Below, piece after piece: positions 8,007 through 42,956 of a DNA stretch of 64,000 bases. This DNA comes from an uncultured delta proteobacterium (GTDB taxonomy: Bacteria; Desulfobacterota; Binatia; JACPRU01): NCBI GenBank assembly GCA_963790365.1, contig CAWBOU010000047.1, forward strand, positions 71,429 through 135,428, written 5' to 3'. The notes below the pieces were generated by a model. The model was not told the DNA's origin and searched no databases. It saw nothing but the letters and a program-made list of their open reading frames with translations. The translations under genes were made by a program, and so were the position numbers. Each line of letters begins with the position of its first letter. Position 1 is the stretch's first letter.

Positions 8007-9189
8007 ATGGCCGATCTCTTCCACCCCACCGAGGAGCACCGCGAGCTCCGCCGCACGCTCCGCGAGTTCGTCGAGAACGAGGTCGATCCGCAGGCGATGG
8101 CCTCGGATCGAAGCGAGACGTTCAACCTCTCGCTCTTTCGCCGCCTCGGCGAGCTCGGCGTGCTCGGCATCACGGTCGACGAGAAATACGGCGGCGCCGG
8201 GCATGGACGCCGTCGCCGCGGTGATCGTGCACGAGGAGCTCGCGGCGTCCGATCCCGGCTTCTGCCTCGCCTACCTCGCGCACTCGATGCTCTTCGTGAA
8301 CAACTTCTTCCACAACGCGAGCGACGAGCAGCGCGCGCGCTACCTGCCCGACGCCTGCTCCGGCAAGAAGGTCGGCGGCATGTGCATGTCGGAGCCGGGC
8401 GCCGGCACGGACGTGCTCGGCATGCAGCACGACCGCCGTCCGCAAAGGCGACCATTACGTGCTCAACGGCCGGAAGATGTGGATCACGAACGGCGCGATC
8501 TCGCGATACGGAGCTCGGCGACGTCTTCCTCGTCTACGCGAAGACCGGCGACCGCGGGCCGCGAAGCCTCTCGCTGTTCCTCGTCGAGAAGGGCTTCTCC
8601 GGGTTCCGGCTCGGGCAGAAGATCAAGGACAAGCTCGGCATGCGCGCCTCGACGACCGCCGAGCTCGTGTTCGACGGACTGCGCCGTACCGGTCGCGAAC
8701 CGCATCGGCGAGGAGGGCGCCGCCGTCATGCACATGATGCGGAACCTCGAGCTCGAGCGGCTGACGCTCGCGGCGATGAGCCTCGGGCTCGCGCGGCGGT
8801 GCGTCGAGGTGATGAACCGCTACGCGTCCGAGCGGAAGGCGTTCGGCCAGCCGATCCGCGAGTTCGGCCAAGTCCAGCGCCACATCGCCGACTCGTACGC
8901 GAAGTGGATGGCCGGACGGAGCTACGTCTACCAGGTCGCCGGCAAGCTGGATCTCGGCGCGACCGGCAACCGCGTCGACTCCGACGGCGTGAAGCTCTTC
9001 TGCTCGGCGATGGCGAAGGAAGTCGCCGACTCGGCGATCCAGGTGCTCGGCGGGTACGGCTACGTCGGCGAGTACCAGGTCGAGCGGCTCTGGCGGGACG
9101 CGAAGCTCCTCGAGATCGGCGGCGGCACGATCGAGGCGCACCAGAAGAACATGACTCGCGATCTCGCGTCCGCGACGACGCTCGAATGA
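8007..9189 (+). pseudogene. isovaleryl-CoA dehydrogenase-like gene split over 5 frame segments (4 net +1 shifts), or assembly indels
   Basis: Segments: MADLFHPTEEHRELR..EKYGGAG (frame 0) | MDAVAAVIVHEEL..MSEPGAGTDVLGMQ (frame 1) | TTAVRKGDHYVLNGRKMWITNGAI (frame 2) | DTELGDVFLVYAKTG..ELVFD (frame 0) | DCAVPVANRIGEEG..YQVERLWRDAKLLEIGGGT (frame 1). Confidence 0.8.
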
Positions 9190-17174: not shown

Positions 17175-18601
17175 CTACTTCTTCGGCTTCGACCACTCCG
17201 TGTGGAACGAGCCCTTCTTGTTGTCGATCCGCTCGTACGTGTGCGCGCCGAAGAAGTCGCGCTGCGCCTGAATCAGATACGCCGGGACGCGCGCACGGCG
17301 GAACGTGTCGAAGTAGCCGAGCGACGCGGCCATCGCGGGCGCGGTGATGCCGAGTCGGATCGAGAAGCCGACGGTCGCTTCCCAGCCCTCGATGCGCTTG
17401 CGGATCTCCTTGCGAAAGCCGTCGTCGAGCAGCAGGTTCGCAAGCTCGGGATTCTTCGCTGAACGCCTCGCGGATCTTGTCGAGGAAGATCGCGCGAATG
17501 ATGCAGCCGCCTTTCCAGATGCGCGCCAGCTCGGCGAGCTTGAGGCCGTACTCGAGCTCCTGCGAGGCACGCCGCAGGAGATCGAAGCCCTGCGCGTACG
17601 AGCAGATCTTCGACGCGTAGAGCGCCTCGCGGATCTGCTCGATCGCCTTCTTCTTCCCGCTCCGCAGCGGCTTCGGCATCGGCGTCTTGTAGGCCTTCGC
17701 CGCCTCGACGCGGATGTCCTTGATCGAGGAGAGGATGCGCGCGTCGACCGCGGCGGTGATCGTCGGGATCGGCACGCCGAAGTCGAGCGCCGCCTCACCG
17801 GTCCACTTGCCCGTGCCCTTCTGCCCCGCCTTGTCGAGGATCAGGTCGACGAGCAGCTTTCGGGAGCCCTGGTCGTCCTTGAAGTTCACGATCTTCGCGG
17901 TGATCTCGATCAGGAACGACTTGAGATCACCCTCGTTCCACTCGGCGAACATGTCGGCGATCTCGGCGGAAGACAAGCCCGAGTCCGTGACGCAGCAGGT
18001 CGTAGGCTTCGGCGATGAGCTGCATGTCGCCGTACTCGATGCCGTTGTGCACCATCTTCACGAAGTGGCCGGCGCTCCCGACGCCGAAATAGGTGACGCA
18101 CGGCCCGCTGTCGGCCTTGGCCGCGATCTTCGTGAGGATCGGCTCGAGGTGGTCGTAGGTCTTGCGGTCGCCGCCCGGCATGAGGCTCGGTCCCCAGAGC
18201 GCGCCTTCCTCGCCGCCGCTCACGCCCATGCCGAAGAACTTGATGCCGGTCGGATCGAGCTCGGCGATCCGCCGATCCGTGTCGGGGTAATGCGAGTTGC
18301 CGCCGTCGATGATGACGTCGCCCGGCTCGAGGTGCGGACGGAGCGCTGCCGCGACGTCGTCGACCGGACTTCCGGCCTTGACCATGAGAAGTATGCGGCG
18401 CGGCCGCTCGACCTGCGCGGCGAGCTCCGCGAGCGTCTTCGCGCCGACGAAGCGCTTGCCCGCGGCGCGACTGCCGAGAAACGACTCCGTCTTGTCCCAG
18501 TCGCGATTGTAGACCGCGACCGAGAAACCATTCCGCTCGACGTTCATAGCGAGGTTCTCGCCCATCACGCCGAGGCCGACGAGACCGAACTCTTGCGCCA
18601 C
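17175..18601 (-). pseudogene. gnd: 6-phosphogluconate dehydrogenase (decarboxylating) with two single-base insertions, or assembly indels
   Basis: GTG 18601 preceded by GGAGA: VAQEFGLVGLGVMGENLA..GGNSHY..MVHNGIEYGDMQLIAEAYDLLRHGLGL | SSAEIADMFAEWNEGDL..WKGGCIIRA..IREAFS | KNPELANLLLDD..AQRDFFGAHTYERID. Shifts near 17976 and 17462. Confidence 0.85.
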
Positions 18602-18618
18602 GAAAATTCTCCTTTTGC

Positions 18619-19344
18619 TCAGGCGGCTTCGCCGGCCGACGCGCGATCGAGCCACCATACGAGCTCGCCGCGCGACGGGCGGACGCCGAGGATCGGATAC
18701 TGCTCGACCGCGGCCGGGTCGTCTTGGGAAGCGAGGCACTTGGCGATGATGTCTTTCTTGTCACCGCCGGCGACGAGCACCCAGACGCGCTTCGCCGCGT
18801 TCAACAGCGGGTAGGTGAACGTCATCCGCCGGGTGTTCAGCTTCGGCACTTCGTTCATCACCACGAGGCGGGTCCGCTCCTTCGTCGCGGCCGTGCCCGG
18901 GAACAACGACGCCGTGTGACCGTCCGGCCCGATGCCGAGGAGGATCAGATCGACCGCGGGGATGCCGTCCGTCCCCGCCGGCACGCGCTCGCGGATCTTC
19001 CGCTCGTAGGCTTCCGCCTCGCCGGCTTCGGCGCGCATGCGGTGCGTGACGATCGGGATCTCGTGGAGGAGCGCCTTCTCGACCATCGCGAAGTTGGAGT
19101 CCGAGTGGTCGGGCGGCACCGCGCGCTCATCGCCGAAGAACACCTCGGCGCGCGCCCACGGCACGGCGGCGGCGAACGGCGGCTTCGCGAGCGTCTCGTA
19201 GAGACGCTTCGGGGTGGAGCCGCCCGAGAGCGCGATCGTCACGGGAGGGGTCGGCGATTCCGCGACGAGCGCGGCGAGCGCCTCGGCCACGCGACCCGAG
19301 ACGTCCTTCGCGTCGGCCGCGATCACCAGCCGCCGCTCGCTCAC
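18619..19344 (-). CDS. pgl: 6-phosphogluconolactonase
   Basis: GTG 19344 overlaps the zwf TGA (GTGA). Contains IALSGGSTPKRLYE..FFGDERAVPPDHSDSN..LLGIGPDGHTASLFPG. Intact frame. Confidence 0.85.
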   Translation of the reverse strand: MSERRLVIAADAKDVSGRVAEALAALVAESPTPPVTIALSGGSTPKRLYETLAKPPFAAAVPWARAEVFFGDERAVPPDHSDSNFAMVEKALLHEIPIVTHRMRAEAGEAEAYERKIRERVPAGTDGIPAVDLILLGIGPDGHTASLFPGTAATKERTRLVVMNEVPKLNTRRMTFTYPLLNAAKRVWVLVAGGDKKDIIAKCLASQDDPAAVEQYPILGVRPSRGELVWWLDRASAGEAA

Positions 19345-20940
19345 ATCTCGTCCAGCGAGCGCCAGCGTGCGGTCGTCCCTTCGAGCAAGCGATTCGCCTC
19401 GTCGGGTCCGTCGCGTGAACGGATAGTAGTTCGGGAACGTCGGCGGCGGCAGCGCCGCCCAGCCCTCGATGGATCGAGCTGATGAAGCGCCACGCGTACT
19501 CGACCTCGTCGGAGCGCGTGAACAGCGACGGGTCGCCGCGCAGCGCGTCGAGCAGCAGCCGCTCGTAGGCCTCCGGCGAGCGCTGCTGGAACGCCTCGCC
19601 GTAGATAGAAGTCCATGTCGACTTCCTCGAGCTGGATCTTCATGCCCGGCTGCTTGCACGCGAACGAGAGGCTGATGCCCTCGTCGGCTGGATGCGCATC
19701 ACGAGCCGGTTCGAGCGCGGGATCGCCGTGCTCGACCTCGTCGTCGTCGACCGCGCTGGCGGAAGAGATGCATCGGCGGCTGCTTGAAGCTCACCGCGAT
19801 CTCGGAGACGCGCTTCGTCAGCCGCTTGCCGGTGCGCAGCAGGAACGGCACGCCCGCCCAGCGCCAGTTGTCGATGTGGATGCGGAGCGCGACGTAGGTC
19901 TCGGTGATCGACTTCGGGTCGACGCCCTCTTCCTGGCGGTAGCCCTTCACGACCTTGCCGTCGATCTCGCCGACACCGTACTGGCCGCGCACGGTGTCGG
20001 CCGCGACCTCCTTCGTGGTGAGCGGCAGGATCGCCCGCAGCACCTTCACCTTCTCGTCGCGGATCGACTGTCGCCTCGAGCGCCGACGGCGGCTCCATCG
20101 CGATCAGGCAGAGGAGCTGCAGCATGTGGTTCTGCACCATGTCGCGCAGCGCGCCGGCGGTGTCGTAGTAGGCGCCGCGCCGCCCTCCATGCCGAGCGTC
20201 TCGGCGACGGTGATCTGCACGTTGTCGACGTACTTCTGGTTGAAGAGCGGCTCGAAGATCGAGTTGCCGAAGCGGAAGCGACAGGATGTTCTGGACGGTC
20301 TCTTTCCCGAGGTAGTGATCGATGCGGTAGATCTGGCTCTCGTCGAGCGACGGACGTGACGTCGCGGTTCAGCTGCGCGCGCGCTCTCGAGGTCGCGCGC
20401 CGAACGGCTTCTCGATGATGACGCGCGACCAGGCGGCGTCGCCGCGGGCGGACGCACGAGGCCGGCCTCGGCGAGGCTGCTTGATGATCGTCGCGAAGAA
20501 CTCCGGCGCGACCGAGAGGTAGAAGAGCCGGTTGCCCGGCAGCGAGGCTTCCTTCTCGAGCCCCTCGACGCGCTCACGCAGACCGCGGAACGACTCCGGA
20601 TCGTCGGCGTTGCCCGGCGAAGTAGTGGAGCGAGCGAACGAGCGGGTGCTCCGCCGTCACGTTCGGGTCCGCATGCTCCTTCAGCGCTTCGAGCATCACC
20701 TCGCGGAACTGCTCGTCGCTCATCGGGCTTCGCGAGAACCCGACCACCTTGAAGCGTATCGGGGAGGAAGCCGTCCTGATGGAGGTGATAGAGGGCGGGG
20801 ATCAGCTTGCGTTTGCTGAGATCACCCGACGCTCCGAAGATGACCACCGTGAAGGGGTCGTGAACGCGGATCTGTTCCGAGCCCGCGCTTGCCGGCGCAG
20901 AGACCGAAACCGAGGCTTTGGGGCGGGTCGTCGGTTCCAA
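19341..20940 (-). pseudogene. zwf: glucose-6-phosphate dehydrogenase broken into about 15 frame segments, or assembly indels
   Basis: TTG 20940 after GGAGGAGG. Recognisable pieces in changing frames: [20 protein letters not shown]; [17 protein letters not shown]; [17 protein letters not shown]; LAEAGLV; [11 protein letters not shown]; [21 protein letters not shown]; [12 protein letters not shown]; [20 protein letters not shown]; [18 protein letters not shown]; GPDEANRLLEG..DEM. Confidence 0.85.
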
Positions 20941-21076: not shown

Positions 21077-21433
21077 CTACCAGCCGCGGCGATGATCGTA
21101 CCGCCAGTCGAGGCGATCGCCGCGACGGTCGAGACGCTCATCGATGCGGTCACCGCGCCGATCGTACCACTCCTCGATCCGATCGCCCCTCTCGTCGAGG
21201 TAGCGAGCGCGCCGATAGTCGCCACGCGCCGCGGCACGTTCCGAGAGCCGATCGTAGTGATCCTCGATGCGATCGCCGCGCCGGTCGAGGCGCGCGTCGA
21301 TGCGATCGCCACGACGGTCCCAGCGGTGCTCGACGCGGTCGCCGCGGTCGCGGCAGAATTCGTCGGCCTGCGCCGCGCCCGCCGTCAGGAGAAAAGCCAA
21401 GCTTCCGGTTGCCAACAGGATTCGCGTCTTCAT
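21077..21433 (-). CDS. small secreted protein made of DRRGDRI(D/E) repeats
   Basis: ATG 21433: MKTRILLATGSLAFLLTAGAAQA signal, then six RGD-containing repeats (RDRGDRVE, DRRGDRID x3, DRRGDRIE, ERGDRIE, DRRGDRLD). Confidence 0.65.
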   Translation of the reverse strand: MKTRILLATGSLAFLLTAGAAQADEFCRDRGDRVEHRWDRRGDRIDARLDRRGDRIEDHYDRLSERAAARGDYRRARYLDERGDRIEEWYDRRGDRIDERLDRRGDRLDWRYDHRRGW

Positions 21434-21560
21434 GCCCGATAGACCGCGCTCGCGCCGAAACGGTTCACGCGAGCCGAATGCCGAGCGGCCGCAACATCGT
21501 CTCATTGGTGCGGTCCGATGCAGCGCGTCGCTCGGTGAGACGATCGGAAGCAGCGTCCCC

Positions 21561-22103
21561 TCAGGGGAGTGACTGGCTGGTCGACGGAATCGACCGCTCG
21601 CCACGATCGGTGAGGATCCGTCCGCTCGCCACGCGAACCGTCGGACGCTCGCTCGTGTCGGCGTCGACCGCGCAGCTCCTCACGGACAGCGTGAACGGTT
21701 GCTGGCTGCGCGGCGGGACGACGCCCGCGAAGGGGAACTCACGCGACTGACACGACGGCGGCTGGCCGGCGCCGCCGGCAGTGAAGGGAAAGTTCGTTTC
21801 GTAGGAAAGCGCCGTCCCCTGACGGACCTGCAGCGGCTCATCGCAAGGATTCCCGACCGATGCGGTCACGACGAAGTCGACGTGCTCGATGTCGGAGTCG
21901 CGGGAGACGGTCGCGCGCCGGATCGCGACCTGCGCGTCGACCGTGAAGCCGGCGCAGACCGGCGCGCCCTGCGGGAGCGCTCGCGCCGGCGGCTTGTCGC
22001 TCCGAAAGTGAGGCTGCGCGAGCGCGAGCTCGGCGATCCCGACGAGCGTGACGACGAGCGGCGCCCTCACGGCGCCGGGGATTCGCTGAACGACGGCACG
22101 CAT
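21561..22103 (-). CDS. secreted hypothetical protein (last gene of the 34.4-21.6 kb operon)
   Basis: N-terminus MRAVVQRIPGAVRAPLVVTLVGIAELALAQP (signal-like), four Cys, no family recognised. Alternative GTG start at 22070. Confidence 0.6.
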   Translation of the reverse strand: MRAVVQRIPGAVRAPLVVTLVGIAELALAQPHFRSDKPPARALPQGAPVCAGFTVDAQVAIRRATVSRDSDIEHVDFVVTASVGNPCDEPLQVRQGTALSYETNFPFTAGGAGQPPSCQSREFPFAGVVPPRSQQPFTLSVRSCAVDADTSERPTVRVASGRILTDRGERSIPSTSQSLP

Positions 22104-34474: not shown

Positions 34475-36075
34475 ATGAACGACCGAGAGCTCTGGGATCG
34501 CTACCGCCGTCATCTTTGTGTCGTCGACAGTCTCGGGCTCGAGCTCGATCCGTCGCGGATGCGCTTCGGCGACGACTTCTTCGACCGCATGGCGCAACCG
34601 ATGGCGCAGGCGTTCGACGAGATGGAGGCGCTCGAGCGCGGCGCGATCGCGAACCCCGACGAGAATCGCATGGTCGGGCACTACTGGCTTCGCGCGCCCG
34701 AGCTGGCGCCGACGCCGGAGCATCACTCGGGCGATCCGAGAACACGCTGGCGGCGATCCACGGCTTCGCCGCGGACGTCCACGCCGGGCGCATCCGCCCG
34801 GAGAAGGCCGACCGCTTCCGCAGGATCCTCGTGGTCGGCATCGGCGGCTCGGCGCTCGGTCCGCAGCTCGTGGCCGATGCGCTCGGCGGGCGCGCAGGAC
34901 GCGATGCGGCCGTCGTTCCTCGACAACACCGATCCGGACGGCATCGACCGCGTGCTCGGCGGCCTCGGCGACGAGCTCGCGGCGACGCTCACCGTCGTCA
35001 TCTAGCAAGTCCGGCGGCACCAAGGAAACGCGCAACGGCATGCTCGAGGCCGCGCGCCGCGTATCCGCGCGGGGGCTCACGTTCGCCCGGCACGCGGTGG
35101 CGGTGACCGGCGAGGGCAGCGAGCTCGACCGCCACGCGGTCGCGGAGAAGCTGGCTCGCGCCGCTTCCCGATGTGGGACTGGGTCGGCGGCCGCACGTCC
35201 GAGCTTTCCGCGGTCGGTCTCCTGCCGGCGCGCGCTGCAGGGGATCGACATCGACGCGCTCCTCGCCGGGCGCGCGGGACATGGACGTCGCGACGCGGGT
35301 CGGCGACGTCAAGCGGAACCCCGCGGCGCTGCTCGCGCTCATGTGGCATCACGCCGGGGACGGCCGAGGCAAGAAGGACATGGTGATCCTGCCCTACAAG
35401 GACCGCTTGCTCCTCATGCAGCAAGTACCTCCAGCAGCTCGTGATGGAGTCGCTCGGCAAGGAGCTCGATCGCAAGGGCCAGGTCGTGAACCAGGGCATC
35501 GCCGTCTACGGCAACAAGGGCTCGACCGATCAGCACGCCTACGTGCAGCAGCTCCGCGACGGCGTGAACAACTTCTTCGTCACGTTCATTGAGGTGCTGA
35601 ACGATCGCGCAGGCGACATCGATGGCCGTCGATCCGGGCGTGACGAGCGGCGACTACCTGCTCGGCTTCCTGCTCGGCACGCGACGCGCGCTCTTCGAGA
35701 AGGACCGCGAGTCGATCACGATCACGGTGCCCGAGGTGAGCCCGCGCACGCTCGGCGCGCTGATCGCGCTCTACGAGCGCGCGGTCGGCTTCTACGCGAT
35801 CGCTCGTCGACATCAACGCCTATCACCAGCCCGGCGTCGAGGCGGGCAAGAAGGCGGCGACGGCCGTGCTCGAGCTGCAGGGACGCGTGCTCGCCCACCT
35901 GAAGGGGGGCGGGTCCGGCACGGCGGAAGCGATCGCCGCGGCCGTCGGCGCGCCGGAGGCGGCCGAGACGATCCTGCACGTCCTTCGACACCTCGCCGCC
36001 AACGGCCGCGGCGTGGAGGCGTCGGTCGCCAAGTCCCCGTTCGAACAGAGCTTTCGCCTCGCCCAGGCTCGTTAG
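34475..36075 (+). pseudogene. pgi: glucose-6-phosphate isomerase in about 12 frame segments, or assembly indels
   Basis: Pieces in successive frames: [27 protein letters not shown] | ITRAIRE | [24 protein letters not shown] | [16 protein letters not shown] | SKSGGTKET.. | [22 protein letters not shown] | [12 protein letters not shown] | ..[18 protein letters not shown] | [31 protein letters not shown] | [15 protein letters not shown] | [15 protein letters not shown]. Confidence 0.85.
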
Positions 36076-39027: not shown

Positions 39028-42000
39028 TCGCTCTCCCGCAGGCGAACGCCGGGCGCTTCGCGGAGCCTCACGCCCGGCCCCTCGCGCAGCTTGATGCCGG
39101 GCGCCTCGCGGAGCTTGATCCCGGGCTGCTCGATCACCGGCTGGCCGCGACGAACGCGCTCGACGCCTTCCGGCGGCGGCGCGGCCTCCGCGGCGACCGT
39201 CTGGAACGTGAGCTCCTTGCCGTCGTCGGGCGCGAAGTCCGTGACGGTGTAGAGCTCGCCGTTGCGCACGTAGAGCCGTCGCATCTCGTCCGCCGTGAAC
39301 GGGCGGCCGCCGCGGCGGCCGAAGACGGCGACCTGGTTGCCGGTCTCGTCGACCGCGCGATCGCGGTCGAGGCCCTTCGAGAGCGCGATCGCCGGGCCGT
39401 GCGTCGGGAACGATGGCGATCAAGTGCGGCTGCGGCCTCGGGCTGAAGCCGAAGTGCCCGGAGCTTCCCGTCGGCGACGTGAGCTGCAGCACGCGGAGGC
39501 CGTTCTTGCCGTCCGCGACGTAGGCGAAGAGGCTCGCGTTCGTCATGCCGACTGCGGACGCGCGCGCGTCGTTCATCTCGCCGCCCGCGTCGAACGTCTC
39601 GACGAGCTTCGGCGTCATCGGCTTCTCGACGTCGACGATCGCGATGCCCTGCGCGCCCGCTGCGACGTACGCGTACGTGCGCGCCACGTAGACGTCGTTC
39701 GCCGCGGCGATCGGCACCTTCGCGTCGGGCACAACGACCGGTTTGTCATGCTCGGTGATGTCGAGGACCTTGAGGCCCTCGGCGTCGGCGACGAACGCGT
39801 AGCGGAACTGGCGATCGATCGCCCGCGGCTTGACGATCGCGGGCGCGCCGATCTCGGCGGTCACGCGGGGATGGAGCGGATCGTCGAGGTCGACGACGAC
39901 GAGCCCGCGGTCGCAGAGCACGTAGGCGTACGTGCCGGTGATCGCGACGTTGCCGCGCCGTCGAGGACGCCGCCCGGGTTGAACGTCAGCGGCGCGCTCG
40001 AGGAAGTTGTTCGCGGGATTGCCGTCGAGCAGCGTCGCGGCGTGCACGAGGATCAAGCCCTCCTCGCGGTCGGTCACGTAGAGGTAGCGCGTAGAGCGGA
40101 TGGATCGGCTGCTCCTCGTTCTCGGCGAGCCGGTCCGCGCGGGATCGACCGCGAGCGTCGCCGGCGCCGCGACCGAGGTCGCGTCCTTCGTCTTCACGTA
40201 GAGGCGCTGCCCGAGCGGCGAGACGGGCGCCGTGGTGATGCGCTCCGAGAACGCCCTTGTTGTCGATGTTGGCGACGTCGTAGACGCGAAGGCCGCCCGG
40301 CCCGTTCGCCGCGTAGAGGTACTCGCCGCGCAGCTGCAGGCTCTGCACCTCGTCACCGCGGCCGCACAGCCAGGAGACTCGAGGATGTCGTTGCCGGGGT
40401 GCTCGATGACCTCGTCGAGCTCGCGATCGCGCTCGACGTGGCGGCGGTATCGCATCGGGATAGGCGAGCGGTGGAGCTGGCTGCCGATCACCGCCTGCGG
40501 CTCGTCGCCCTCGGTGACCGCCACCGCCTCGAGCCCTTCGTCCTCCGAGCCCGACGTACGCGAAGCGGCCGAAGAAGTTCACGAAGCTGCGTGCCGTGGA
40601 GCAGCAGCTGCGCCATCCACGCGTTGTTGTCGCCTCGGTCGGAGACGTGGCAGTCCGTGCAGACCTTCGTCTCCGTGCGCGCGCACGGTGTGCGGCACGT
40701 GCGTGTTGAACGCCTGGCCGGTGAAGCCCTCCGCGGAGATCGTCTGCTGCTGCGAGTAGAACCACTCGCGGTTCTGCGTTCTGCGAGCTCACGAGCACGC
40801 GCGCTCGACGAGCGCACCGGCGAGATCCGGCTGCCCGCGGCGGTGCCGTCGCTGCCGAGCATGAAGACGTCGTCGCGCAGCACCTGGAAGTTGTAGCCGG
40901 TCCAGTTGCGGAGCTTCTCGCCCTCGTTGTGGAGAGTTCGTGCGGCGGTTCGCCTGCTGCGAGCAGATGGCAGCCGAAGCAGCTCGTCATCCACGAGGTG
41001 TGGCACGTGAAGCAGGTCATCTTGTCGTCGCCGTGCGCGAGCGCGCTCGCGTCGTCCGGCACGTCGCCCCACGTCTTGCCGTCTCTGCGGATGGTCTTCG
41101 CGAGGCGCGAGGCCTCGTTGTAGTGCGCGCTCGCGGGATCCACGGTGTCGCGCGTCTGCACGACTTCCCACTCGACGTTCGGCGTCACCGCCGAGCGCTG
41201 GAAGAGCTTGGCGCCCTTCTTGAAGAACGCGCTCGCCGAACGCCGTGCGGTTGTACTTCTTCAGCGGATTTCCGCCCGCGGGCCCGCGGGTCTTCCAGTC
41301 GCGCGCCGTCGGATCGGCGAGCGCGGAGATCGAGCCGTGGCAGTCGATGCACTGGATCTCGATCGCGTTCCGCACCTCGCCGTAGAGCTTGCCGTCGCCG
41401 TGCGCGTCCTGCTCGAAGTGGCAGTCGACGCAGTGCATCCCCTTCTCGAGGTGGATGTCCTTGAGATGCACGGCCTTCTTGAAGCGCTCGGGATCGTCCC
41501 ACGGGATCGTCTTGCCGCGCGCGTCGAGCAGGTTGCCCTTGCGATCCTGCTTGTAGACGTTCCGGAAGATCCAGCCGTGGCCGTGGAAGTCGGCGAACTG
41601 CGTCTTCGTGAGCTTCGGGTTCAGATCCGTCAGGTTCGCGAGGAACTCCGGCGTCGGACCAAGGCCGCGGAGCGCCGCGCGGCCTCGGGTTCGCCGTCTC
41701 GAGCGTCGACGCTGCTCGCTCGCGGCGAGCGCCTCTTCGGCTCGCGCTGATACGAAGCGCTCGCCGTCGGTCTCGTTGTCCCACCAGGTCGTGCCGTAAT
41801 ACGTGTTCACGACGTTCGTGCCCGGATGCATGTGGCAGACGACGCACTGGCTCGACGGGATCGCGCTCGTGAACTGTGCCGGATCGGGTGGCCGGGCTCG
41901 TCCTTCGGGATCGTCGGGTCGACCGTCGCCGTCTGGCCGCGGTTGCCGAACTGGGCCCACGGGCCGGAGTGCACCGGGTCGCGATCGTTCGCGTAGACGA

Positions 42001-42956
42001 CGTGGCAGCCGGTGCAGCCGCTCGAGCGGTAGTCGCCGGGGTGATCGTTCGTGCCGAGCATGTGGAGGATCGGGTCGAGCAGACGCGTCTTCTGCAGGCC
42101 GAAGAAGACCGGGTCCGTGCGATTCGCCGTGCCGAGGCCGCGCTGGCTGAGTCGCCGCTCGGGCGCCCCGGAGGATCCGGCTCGAGCACGTTGATGTTGC
42201 CGATCTCGAGGGCTTCCGCCCGCCGCGCTCGAAGAAGCGGAGGATGTTGCCGGGCTGGCTGATCTCCCACCGCGCGAGCGGCGCGAGGAACGGCAGGATC
42301 CCGCGCTTTTTCGTCGCCTCCGCGTCGGGCGCATCTTTGGCGACGAGCGCCTGCGGCTTGCCGTCGCGGCCGTAGCTCTCGCCGAAGCGCGGGTCCTTCA
42401 CCGGGATCGAGCCGTTGTTGTAGAGCGCCGCGCCCCAGAGGCTCGCCCCGTGGGTCATCATGCTCGTCTTCACGCGCGCGACCTGATCCGCGTGACATCC
42501 GTCGAGCCCGCACGTGCGGTCCGCGACGCGGAGATCCCCGGGGTTCATGAACTGTACGAACTCGGGGCTCTCCTTCAGGAACGCCGCGTTCGAGCGGACG
42601 GGGTTCGCGCTCGTCTTGAAGACGTCCGCCTGAAGCGGCGCGACGTGGGCGGTCTCCTTGTCCTTGGCGCCGATGGTCCCCCCGTGACAGTCGACGCACG
42701 CGAGCGGGATGTCCGCCTCGTGCATCGACGCCGAGTCCGTCGAGGTGTGACAGGAGACGCAGCCCTCGTTCTTGCGCGTGACGTCGTCCGACGATTGGCT
42801 CATCAGGTCGACGGTCGGCGCCTTCGCGGTCTCCGCCGCGGCGGGGGTGTCCGCGCTCGCAGGCTCCGGCGCCTCGTCGGCGGTCGTCGCCACCGGCGCG
42901 ACGATCAGAAAGAGCGCGAGGAGAGTGCGCGACAGGGGGAAAGTTCTTCTTACCAC
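39024..42956 (-). pseudogene. about 1300-codon multihaem cytochrome c fused to an LVIVD-repeat beta-propeller, read through at least a dozen frame changes (or assembly indels)
   Basis: Signal MVRRTFPLSRTLLALFLIVAPVA. Haem sites CVSCH, CVDCH, CGLDGCH, CTGCH, CVVCH, CVDCH, CIDCH, CFTCH, CFGCH, CTDCH. Then, with no stop, GEYLYAANGPGGLRVYDV, GTYAYVLCDRGLVVVDLDD, YAFVADAEGLKVLDI, YAYVAAGAQGIAIVDV, FAYVADGKNGLRVLQL. C-terminus has 4x PG(I/V)(K/R)LRE. Confidence 0.7.

Follow-up and report, generated by a model that had tools for sequence, protein, structure and literature searches.

Real gene decay in bacteria, as in Mycobacterium leprae, proceeds gene by gene, is rich in substitutions, is biased towards deletions and spares the essential genes. 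The homopolymer errors that remain in long-read assemblies are spread more evenly and consist mainly of deletions within runs of one base. For nanopore and PacBio CLR data, residual indel errors in homopolymer length are described in PMC9262707 and in the proovframe preprint (10.1101/2021.08.23.457338). In the PacBio assembly of Trypanosoma brucei Lister 427 it was the collapse of two alleles that led to INDEL errors, seen as apparent frameshifts near allelic variants (PMC8445201). The window analyzed here, a stretch of 64,000 nucleotides from a Binatia MAG of 4.6 Mb, contains a zwf gene, coding for glucose-6-phosphate 1-dehydrogenase, whose reading frame is broken 16 times. Judging from the deposited sequence, these breaks are very probably an artefact of assembly, of whatever kind, and not mutations in the organism, because they belong to about 200 patches of breaks spread over the genome, even within the essential gene rpoB.

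The zwf gene lies on the minus strand (19341..20940), from a TTG start at 20940 to a TGA stop at 19343-19341, with a conceptual product of about 529 aa. It is followed on the same strand by pgl (6-phosphogluconolactonase, 18619..19344), whose GTG start at 19344 shares the tetranucleotide GTGA with the zwf stop, and by gnd (6-phosphogluconate dehydrogenase, 17175..18622, the start being approximate). As stated in the initial annotation, pgl is unbroken over its 726 nt and shares GTGA with zwf; its product matches 8–225 of the 225 positions of the Pfam profile Glucosamine_iso (E = 7e-63), and alignment with the closest intact homologous locus, L019, shows zero indels across the first 190 nt. In gnd, three-frame translation and the codon-model path place two isolated breaks, near 17460 and 17967, and the stitched product covers the complete Pfam 6PGD profile (1–290 of 290 positions) as well as NAD_binding_2. 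There is little doubt that zwf, pgl and gnd form an ordinary operon in the organism. The identity of zwf itself is clear: the stitched product of 529 aa has 8,000 scored homologues at E <= 1e-50, and PF00479 (G6PD_N) and PF02781 (G6PD_C) are both present in all 120 homologues listed. In the broken gene, positions 3–266 of the G6PD_C profile are matched by four pieces in differing frames. The conserved G6PDH blocks named in the initial annotation as lying in changing frames were all recovered (six of six motifs), among them the NADP-binding motif GASGDL and the substrate and catalytic motifs EKPFG and RIDHYLGKE, by three-frame translation and alignment to relatives. The best match is an intact G6PDH of 528 aa from a JGI metagenome, with 91% amino acid identity over 100% of the length; a search of the region with relatives by plain tblastn under-reports the identity (32–46%) owing to the breaks. 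The intact homologues listed reach 91% identity at the protein level and 95.5% at the nucleotide level (L019), an independent assembly of the zwf locus was not found, and a scan of JGI metagenome contigs for zwf gave 74% amino acid identity at best. A second G6PDH gene is found elsewhere in the genome, at C13:40714-41551. Cross-talk of zwf with this paralogue, or with another repeat, was considered as a source of the breaks and rejected, since no second copy of the zwf patch at 85% identity or above exists in the genome.

The breaks in zwf were placed by frameshift-aware, dynamic-programming protein-DNA alignment to relatives, and the indels were also classed by a three-way nucleotide alignment with the intact genes of L019 (95.5% nucleotide identity) and L020 (86%). 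Together they define a patch from 19413 to 20755 (minus strand), with 16 breaks in 1.35 kb, where about 15 and at least 12 had been counted. Thirteen are single-base insertions, near 20755, 20612, 20478, 20399, 20377, 20348, 20278, 20068, 19757, 19728, 19604, 19462-19468 and 19413, which bears out the earlier description of the breaks as mostly of this kind; one is a two-base insertion (20438-20439), and two are deletions of a single A (about 20187 and 19685). The comparison with the closest intact zwf, proposed in the initial annotation as a way to classify each indel, thus yields 14 insertions against 2 deletions. The deletions are the only indels to fall in AA dinucleotides, and the one near 19685 drops the first base of a codon that varies between Asn and Asp. 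The spacing suggested at first sight, one break about every 100 nt, is right as an average (mean near 90 nt) and wrong as a regularity: distances range from 22 to 313 nt, and we therefore discarded periodicity. Similarly, the last break is indeed close to the pgl start, at 69 nt and not about 50. Substitutions on the branch leading to the window sequence are evenly spread over the codon positions (10/11/12), with 10 synonymous and 23 non-synonymous, a pattern that fits consensus errors and relaxed selection equally well. Their excess inside the patch as compared with its flanks is not significant (Fisher p = 0.59).

We further analyzed the distribution of such breaks with a codon-model Viterbi scan over the whole MAG, counting frame switches that stay on one strand and have no stop codon close by. 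The scan yields 2,167 switches, concentrated in 219 patches of 0.4–5 kb (median 0.8 kb, about 8 switches per kb); 71% of the 2-kb bins contain none, and the maximum is 16 per bin. Patches take up about 5% of the MAG, and within them a base is added or lost roughly every 90–120 nt; the remainder is clean. The single-copy essential gene rpoB has 15 breaks (C39:18054-19752) and is about 90% identical to its relatives between them; the adjoining rpoC has none. Among the genes struck are also polA, clpA, lepA, pgi and gnd. The assembly is otherwise clean, and the patches run across gene borders, as would be expected if strains had been collapsed: one (C12:200538-204738) crosses UDP-glucose dehydrogenase, two epimerases and LepA, another (C49:64509-67062) ClpS and ClpA, and a third (C12:34134-36117) PolA, an ECF sigma factor and its anti-sigma factor. 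The uniqueness that the initial annotation implied for the damage in zwf does not hold even within the window, where, besides the two breaks in gnd, three further patches are present. Glucose-6-phosphate isomerase (pgi, plus strand, 34475..36075, Pfam PGI), aligned to P0121 (88% amino acid identity) and L021, has 11 insertions of one base each, within 34721–35799, and no deletion. A small patch with four switches lies in an acyl-CoA dehydrogenase gene (plus strand, 8199..8676), the stitched product of which matches Acyl-CoA_dh_N, Acyl-CoA_dh_M and Acyl-CoA_dh_1, and a large one with about 17 switches in a multihaem cytochrome/propeller gene (minus strand, 39411..42213). The earlier view that the noise is non-uniform is consequently correct; the sharp boundary to which it pointed is, however, no border between zwf and pgl but the place where one of some 219 patches ends. 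The same scan gave 0–0.12 switches per kb in control genomes of the same class (G003, G007, G009, G020), 0.47 in the window's own genome (69 contigs, completeness 65.8%), and 0.62–1.13, clustered and about 75% of the +1 type, in G002, G005 and G006, which are genomes of the same family with few contigs and low completeness. Set against the control rate, the 16 breaks in 1.35 kb of zwf exceed what chance would give. The pattern tracks the type of assembly, not the lineage.

The kind of error is equally distinctive. Genome-wide, net +1 switches outnumber net −1 switches by 3:1 (1604 vs 563). Of the 35 single-base insertions examined in zwf, pgi and rpoB, not one simply lengthens a homopolymer, where 27.5% would do so at random (p = 1.3e-5), so that the concentration of indels in runs of identical bases that marks homopolymer errors is not what is found here. 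In zwf, the extra base is in 5 of 12 cases the one that L020 carries at an adjacent site variable between L019 and L020 (chance 0.08–0.10 per site, P = 0.001–0.004). In pgi, three doublets, GA[G C], GA[A C] and GA[C A], occur where relatives have both Asp and Glu. A pure model of doublets at natural SNPs leads one to expect an enrichment at synonymous third positions; with homopolymer cases set aside, the insertions show 43% there versus 33% at random, which is not significant (p = 0.15). That related genotypes are present in the data becomes clear at another locus. A stretch of 12.2 kb is present there in two versions, C1:59106-71327 and C6:10081-22278, which are 96.6% identical; 20 frame switches fall in the version on C1 and 2, at other places, in that on C6. 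Here a second genotype and an intact version of a patched stretch are thus found together, at a locus other than zwf, and the breaks are accordingly no constant feature of the locus.

As the specific cause of the breaks in zwf we favor, with moderate confidence, a consensus blended from two strains. Two co-occurring, slightly different strains would have had their reads collapsed, within patches, into one consensus by a step that tolerates indels. At a strain-variable site such a step may write both alleles side by side, which gives a +1 insertion, or neither of them, which gives a −1 deletion, so that each seemingly inserted base would be the allele of the other strain. It would follow that the extra base never copies its neighbor and that the flanking codons read perfectly, and also that the patches end abruptly, without regard to where genes begin or end. 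The reads would be expected to show two clean alleles per site, and the doublets would have been made by a software step. DAG-type consensus may convert mismatches into pairs of indels; an explicit statement to this effect was not found in the literature that we examined.

A locally poor consensus without any mixing of strains, for instance in stretches covered by only one to three long reads, in stretches not reached by short-read polishing, or in gaps filled with nearly raw long-read sequence, is a possible but less likely explanation. The size of the patches (0.4–5 kb) matches the scale on which long-read coverage fluctuates, contig ends carry a patch somewhat more often than random 3-kb windows do (24.6% vs 15.1%), and the unmerged overlap of C64 and C65 (87.9% identity, 272 gap positions in 6 kb) resembles raw-read noise; moreover, the codon positions of the insertions are near random, and the zwf substitutions are random in this respect as well. 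However, random long-read errors normally favor homopolymers, whereas none of the 35 insertions extends one (p = 1.3e-5), and 5 of the 12 extra bases in zwf coincide with a natural allele at an adjacent variable site (P about 0.004). The overlapping contig pairs, for their part, show that diverged genotypes are in the data. A dropout of short reads in GC-rich DNA is also unconvincing as a cause, the G+C content of the patches being only about 1.5 points above that of other coding DNA, so that a strong effect of this kind is not evident.

Explanations that take the DNA as true fare much worse. It is highly unlikely that zwf is a real and very recent pseudogene, marking decay of the oxidative branch of the pentose-phosphate pathway, perhaps backed by the paralogue on C13. 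The breaks are truly in the deposited sequence, a second G6PDH gene exists, and the even spread of the substitutions over codon positions, with 10 synonymous to 23 non-synonymous, is as expected without selection. Against this, a pseudogene calls for damage specific to zwf with the essential genes intact, whereas about 219 similar patches exist which cross gene borders and include the single-copy genes rpoB, polA and clpA. The mutation spectrum in zwf is also not that of natural decay: 16 indels accompany only about 32 window-branch substitutions, and the excess of insertions (14:2) is unlike bacterial gene decay. Furthermore, gnd and pgi, of the same pathway, would need to have undergone the same odd decay with pgl left untouched, and the pattern follows the type of assembly rather than the lineage. 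The protein keeps all motifs and shares 91% of its residues with an intact homologue, and the argument of the initial annotation that conservation between the breaks speaks against long-term decay remains valid; of the two branches that it left undecided, pseudogene and artefact, the present data support the latter and not the former. The sequence might, on the contrary, be true and its expression rescued, by programmed frameshifting or by an RNA edit deleting a base at thousands of sites. The sole point in favor of this idea, which we regard as exceedingly unlikely, is that rpoB and other broken essential genes would need such a rescue if the sequence were true. The 35 insertion sites examined share no common motif, the sites are patchy and cover only parts of genes, relatives at 86–95% identity have ordinary intact genes, and one duplicated stretch is present both broken and unbroken within the same bin. 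To our knowledge, no such recoding system exists in bacteria. Only marginally less remote, and still extremely improbable, is the broader proposal that the extra bases in the roughly 200 patches are real and either rescued by recoding or RNA editing, or else scars left by error-prone repair of tracts of recombination between strains; in the latter variant, heteroduplex mismatches between the strains would have been turned into tandem allele doublets.

The breaks in zwf are thus a matter of data quality and hold no biological news. Within the sampled family, the window's genome and at least G002, G005 and G006 contain thousands of patchy frame errors, which depress estimates of completeness, generate false pseudogenes, split genes and seemingly novel short ORFs, and mislead any scan that looks for decaying genes, for recoding or for small proteins; storms of frameshifts in such genomes should be discounted unless they are supported by reads. 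If the blended-strain mechanism is true, the patches mark where coexisting strains differ and could be put to use by strain-aware reassembly.

Compared with the systems described at the outset, zwf resembles the bacterial pseudogenes of Mycobacterium leprae or of recent symbionts in that a conserved gene has many frameshifts beside intact neighbors, and differs from them in that the patches ignore gene borders, are biased towards insertions and include rpoB. With the residual homopolymer errors of long reads it has in common that ORFs of contiguous long-read MAGs are interrupted by indels of one base, which lowers completeness as estimated from marker genes; unlike them, the present errors comprise no pure homopolymer extension among 35, favor insertions by 3:1 and are confined to patches. 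The collapsed alleles of Trypanosoma brucei Lister 427 differ in that they belong to homologous chromosomes and are proven at the level of reads, whereas the partners here would be putative co-occurring strains of a metagenome, and the form of error with both alleles written side by side is one to which the 5 of 12 allele coincidences and the avoidance of homopolymers point. The likeness is nevertheless close: in each case two similar sequences would have been merged, the genes being intact in each separate allele, and the errors are limited to the stretches in which the two differ, heterozygous ones in the trypanosome and, on the reading favored here, strain-variable ones in the Binatia genome.

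The oxidative pentose-phosphate operon zwf-pgl-gnd occupies 17.2–21.0 kb of the window on the minus strand: zwf begins with a TTG at 20940 and ends with a TGA at 19343–19341, pgl extends from a GTG at 19344 to 18619, with GTGA common to the zwf stop and the pgl start, and gnd (17175–18622), which contains two frame breaks, lies directly downstream of pgl. Three-frame translation recovers all six G6PDH motifs named in the initial annotation, in changing frames, and pgl is intact, as stated there, with 726 nt free of breaks and a match to the Pfam family Glucosamine_iso over the whole profile. Directly upstream of zwf lies a small intact ORF (21077–21604, minus strand). Its product, about 118 aa if the start is MKTRILLATGSLAFLLTAGAAQA (signal-peptide-like) and about 95 aa after the signal, consists of repeats with the pattern DRRGDRI(D/E)xxxD; we recognise no family for it.

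Ordinary tblastn is inadequate for the frame-broken zwf; we therefore used a purpose-written protein-to-DNA alignment permitting frame moves. Against three relatives it places 15–17 frame moves in the gene, and when the frames are followed the amino acid identity, as judged by eye, is about 75–80%. An intact 528-aa G6PDH from a JGI metagenome matches the stitched product from end to end at 91% identity, and several of the product's close matches carry the source label Candidatus Binatia. Two intact homologues served as nucleotide comparators, L019 on a 1.8-kb JGI contig (95.5% identity to zwf) and L020 in a Binatia MAG at NCBI (86%). The three-way alignment reveals 13 single-base insertions, one two-base insertion and two deletions, each of one A out of an AA pair; all of the breaks fall between 20755 and 19413, at irregular spacings of 22–313 nt. 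The first 190 nt of pgl show no indel against L019, with substitutions at about 6%. The number and kinds of breaks and the indel-free start of pgl thus bear out, in every material point, the initial observation of a repeatedly broken zwf overlapping an intact pgl. The L019 contig (metagenome 3300065475, contig Ga0606646_0172005) holds an intact 528-aa zwf in the same zwf-pgl order with a 4-nt overlap, and is about 99% identical to the window over the first 190 nt of zwf, so that closely related populations occur in other samples; a protein homologue search and a scan of JGI metagenome contigs found no independent assembly of the exact locus.

zwf is not special, as breaks also occur in gnd and in patches across the genome. 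A codon model trained on 844 long ORFs of this genome, applied as a seven-state Viterbi path (three frames per strand and non-coding) to all 69 contigs, identified 2,167 same-strand frame switches without a nearby stop codon. Whereas 71% of 2-kb bins are free of switches, the others contain up to 16, and the clustered switches form 219 patches (median 0.8 kb, maximum 5 kb, about 8 switches per kb) that together cover about 5% of the genome. Four lie within the window, in an acyl-CoA dehydrogenase (8199–8676, plus strand, 4 switches), zwf, pgi (34475–36075, plus strand, 11 single-base insertions at 34721–35799) and a multihaem cytochrome gene (39411–42213, minus strand, about 17 switches); in annotating the window, the breaks in pgi, acyl-CoA dehydrogenase, multihaem cytochrome and gnd should be read through. 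Elsewhere gene borders are crossed, by one large patch spanning UDP-glucose dehydrogenase, two epimerases and LepA, another covering ClpS and ClpA, and a third covering PolA, an ECF sigma factor and an anti-sigma factor. A second, more distant G6PDH paralogue (contig C13:40714–41551) is split by one switch near C13:41334. The family match of the single-copy rpoB falls in four pieces, with 15 breaks in the first 1.7 kb of the gene (C39:18054–19752, outside the window) and about 90% identity to relatives between them; the patch extends upstream to about C39:21288, and the adjoining rpoC (C39:11648–15682) is a single open frame of 1416 aa. The broken rpoB beside an open rpoC repeats the picture of zwf and pgl, here in an operon where a pseudogene is out of the question.

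We consider it very probable that the cluster of breaks in zwf is an assembly artefact and not biology. In the in-house codon-model scan, 178 kb from four related genomes (G003, G007, G009 and G020) gave 0–0.12 apparent switches per kb, never clustered, which sets the background of all these counts at about 0.06 per kb (11 events). On the other hand, 180 kb from three same-family genomes with few contigs and low completeness (G002, G005 and G006) gave 0.62–1.13 per kb, clustered and about 75% of them +1; such switches are seen at G002:C12:1–20000, G005:C14:120001–180000 and G006:C14:110001–170000 (loci L031–L039). The zwf genes of these three, too, are in part recovered as fragments; the family model finds it full-length and open in G003, G007 and G004, the last a 390-contig assembly with additional partial matches on other short contigs. 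The genome under study has 4.6 Mb in 69 contigs and a completeness of only 65.8%. The pattern therefore follows assembly type, not lineage; judging by G002, G005 and G006, the fault seems to lie at the level of the data set from which the family's species representatives come.

The artefact probably stems from alleles blended in the consensus: in many places an extra base can be read, together with the one beside it, as two alleles of one position, as in the doublets AC[G C], GG[C G] and TA[T C], or in ACA/CAG written as ACAG. In zwf, 5 of 12 insertions equal the L020 base at an adjacent site differing between L019 and L020, a coincidence with a chance of 0.08–0.10 per site (P = 0.001–0.004). 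Three doublets in pgi are Asp/Glu third-position pairs where relatives show both residues, and one of the two deletions in zwf falls on the first base of a codon for which relatives have Asn or Asp. As a direct sign of mixed genotypes, several pairs of contig ends overlap unmerged at 87.9–99.5% identity: C1:59106–71327 with C6:10081–22278 (12.2 kb, 96.6%), C42:153706–160962 with C33:9896–17195 (7.3 kb, 97.7%), C30:24854–29842 with C54:16256–21239 (5 kb, 99.5%) and C64:5913–11913 with C65:1–5983 (6 kb, 87.9%). Some loci are thus represented in the bin more than once, in diverged versions that are either unmerged haplotigs or variants from different strains, despite a reported contamination of only 0.42%. 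In the C1/C6 stretch, frame switches number 20 in the C1 version and 2 in the C6 version; C1 falls into 36 short coding-frame segments, C6 into 17 of up to 1.9 kb, so that a patched stretch is visible unbroken in a second version within the bin, and the data contain diverged genotypes.

Across the genome there are 1604 net +1 switches to 563 net −1, and insertions and deletions number 14 and 2 in zwf, 11 and 0 in pgi, and 12 and 3 in rpoB. A real zwf pseudogene, which we regard as highly improbable, would require the same insertion-biased process to act on rpoB and about 200 other places. Substitutions on the window branch of zwf are spread randomly over codon positions (10/11/12, vs. 6/3/24 on the L019 branch), which fits errors and relaxed selection alike, and they show no significant excess inside the patch over its flanks. 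Recoding or RNA editing is without support and can practically be dismissed. Plain noise from low-coverage or unpolished long reads is a possible, though less likely, source: patch sizes fit it, patches are mildly enriched at contig ends (24.6% vs. 15.1%) and the C64/C65 overlap is very noisy, but the coincidences with alleles at the extra bases and the avoidance of homopolymers speak against it. When one algorithm was used to classify 35 single-base insertions and 1,520 random ones simulated in the intact L019 gene, pure homopolymer extensions amounted to 0 of 35 against 27.5% expected (p = 1.3e-5), and the breaks thus differ from classical long-read homopolymer error; by the same classification, enrichment of insertions at synonymous third positions was not significant.

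For an assembly artefact with indel errors linked to alleles there is a published precedent: for a heterozygous trypanosome, a collapsed long-read assembly contained INDEL errors and apparent frameshifts that nearby allelic variants had produced (PMC8445201).
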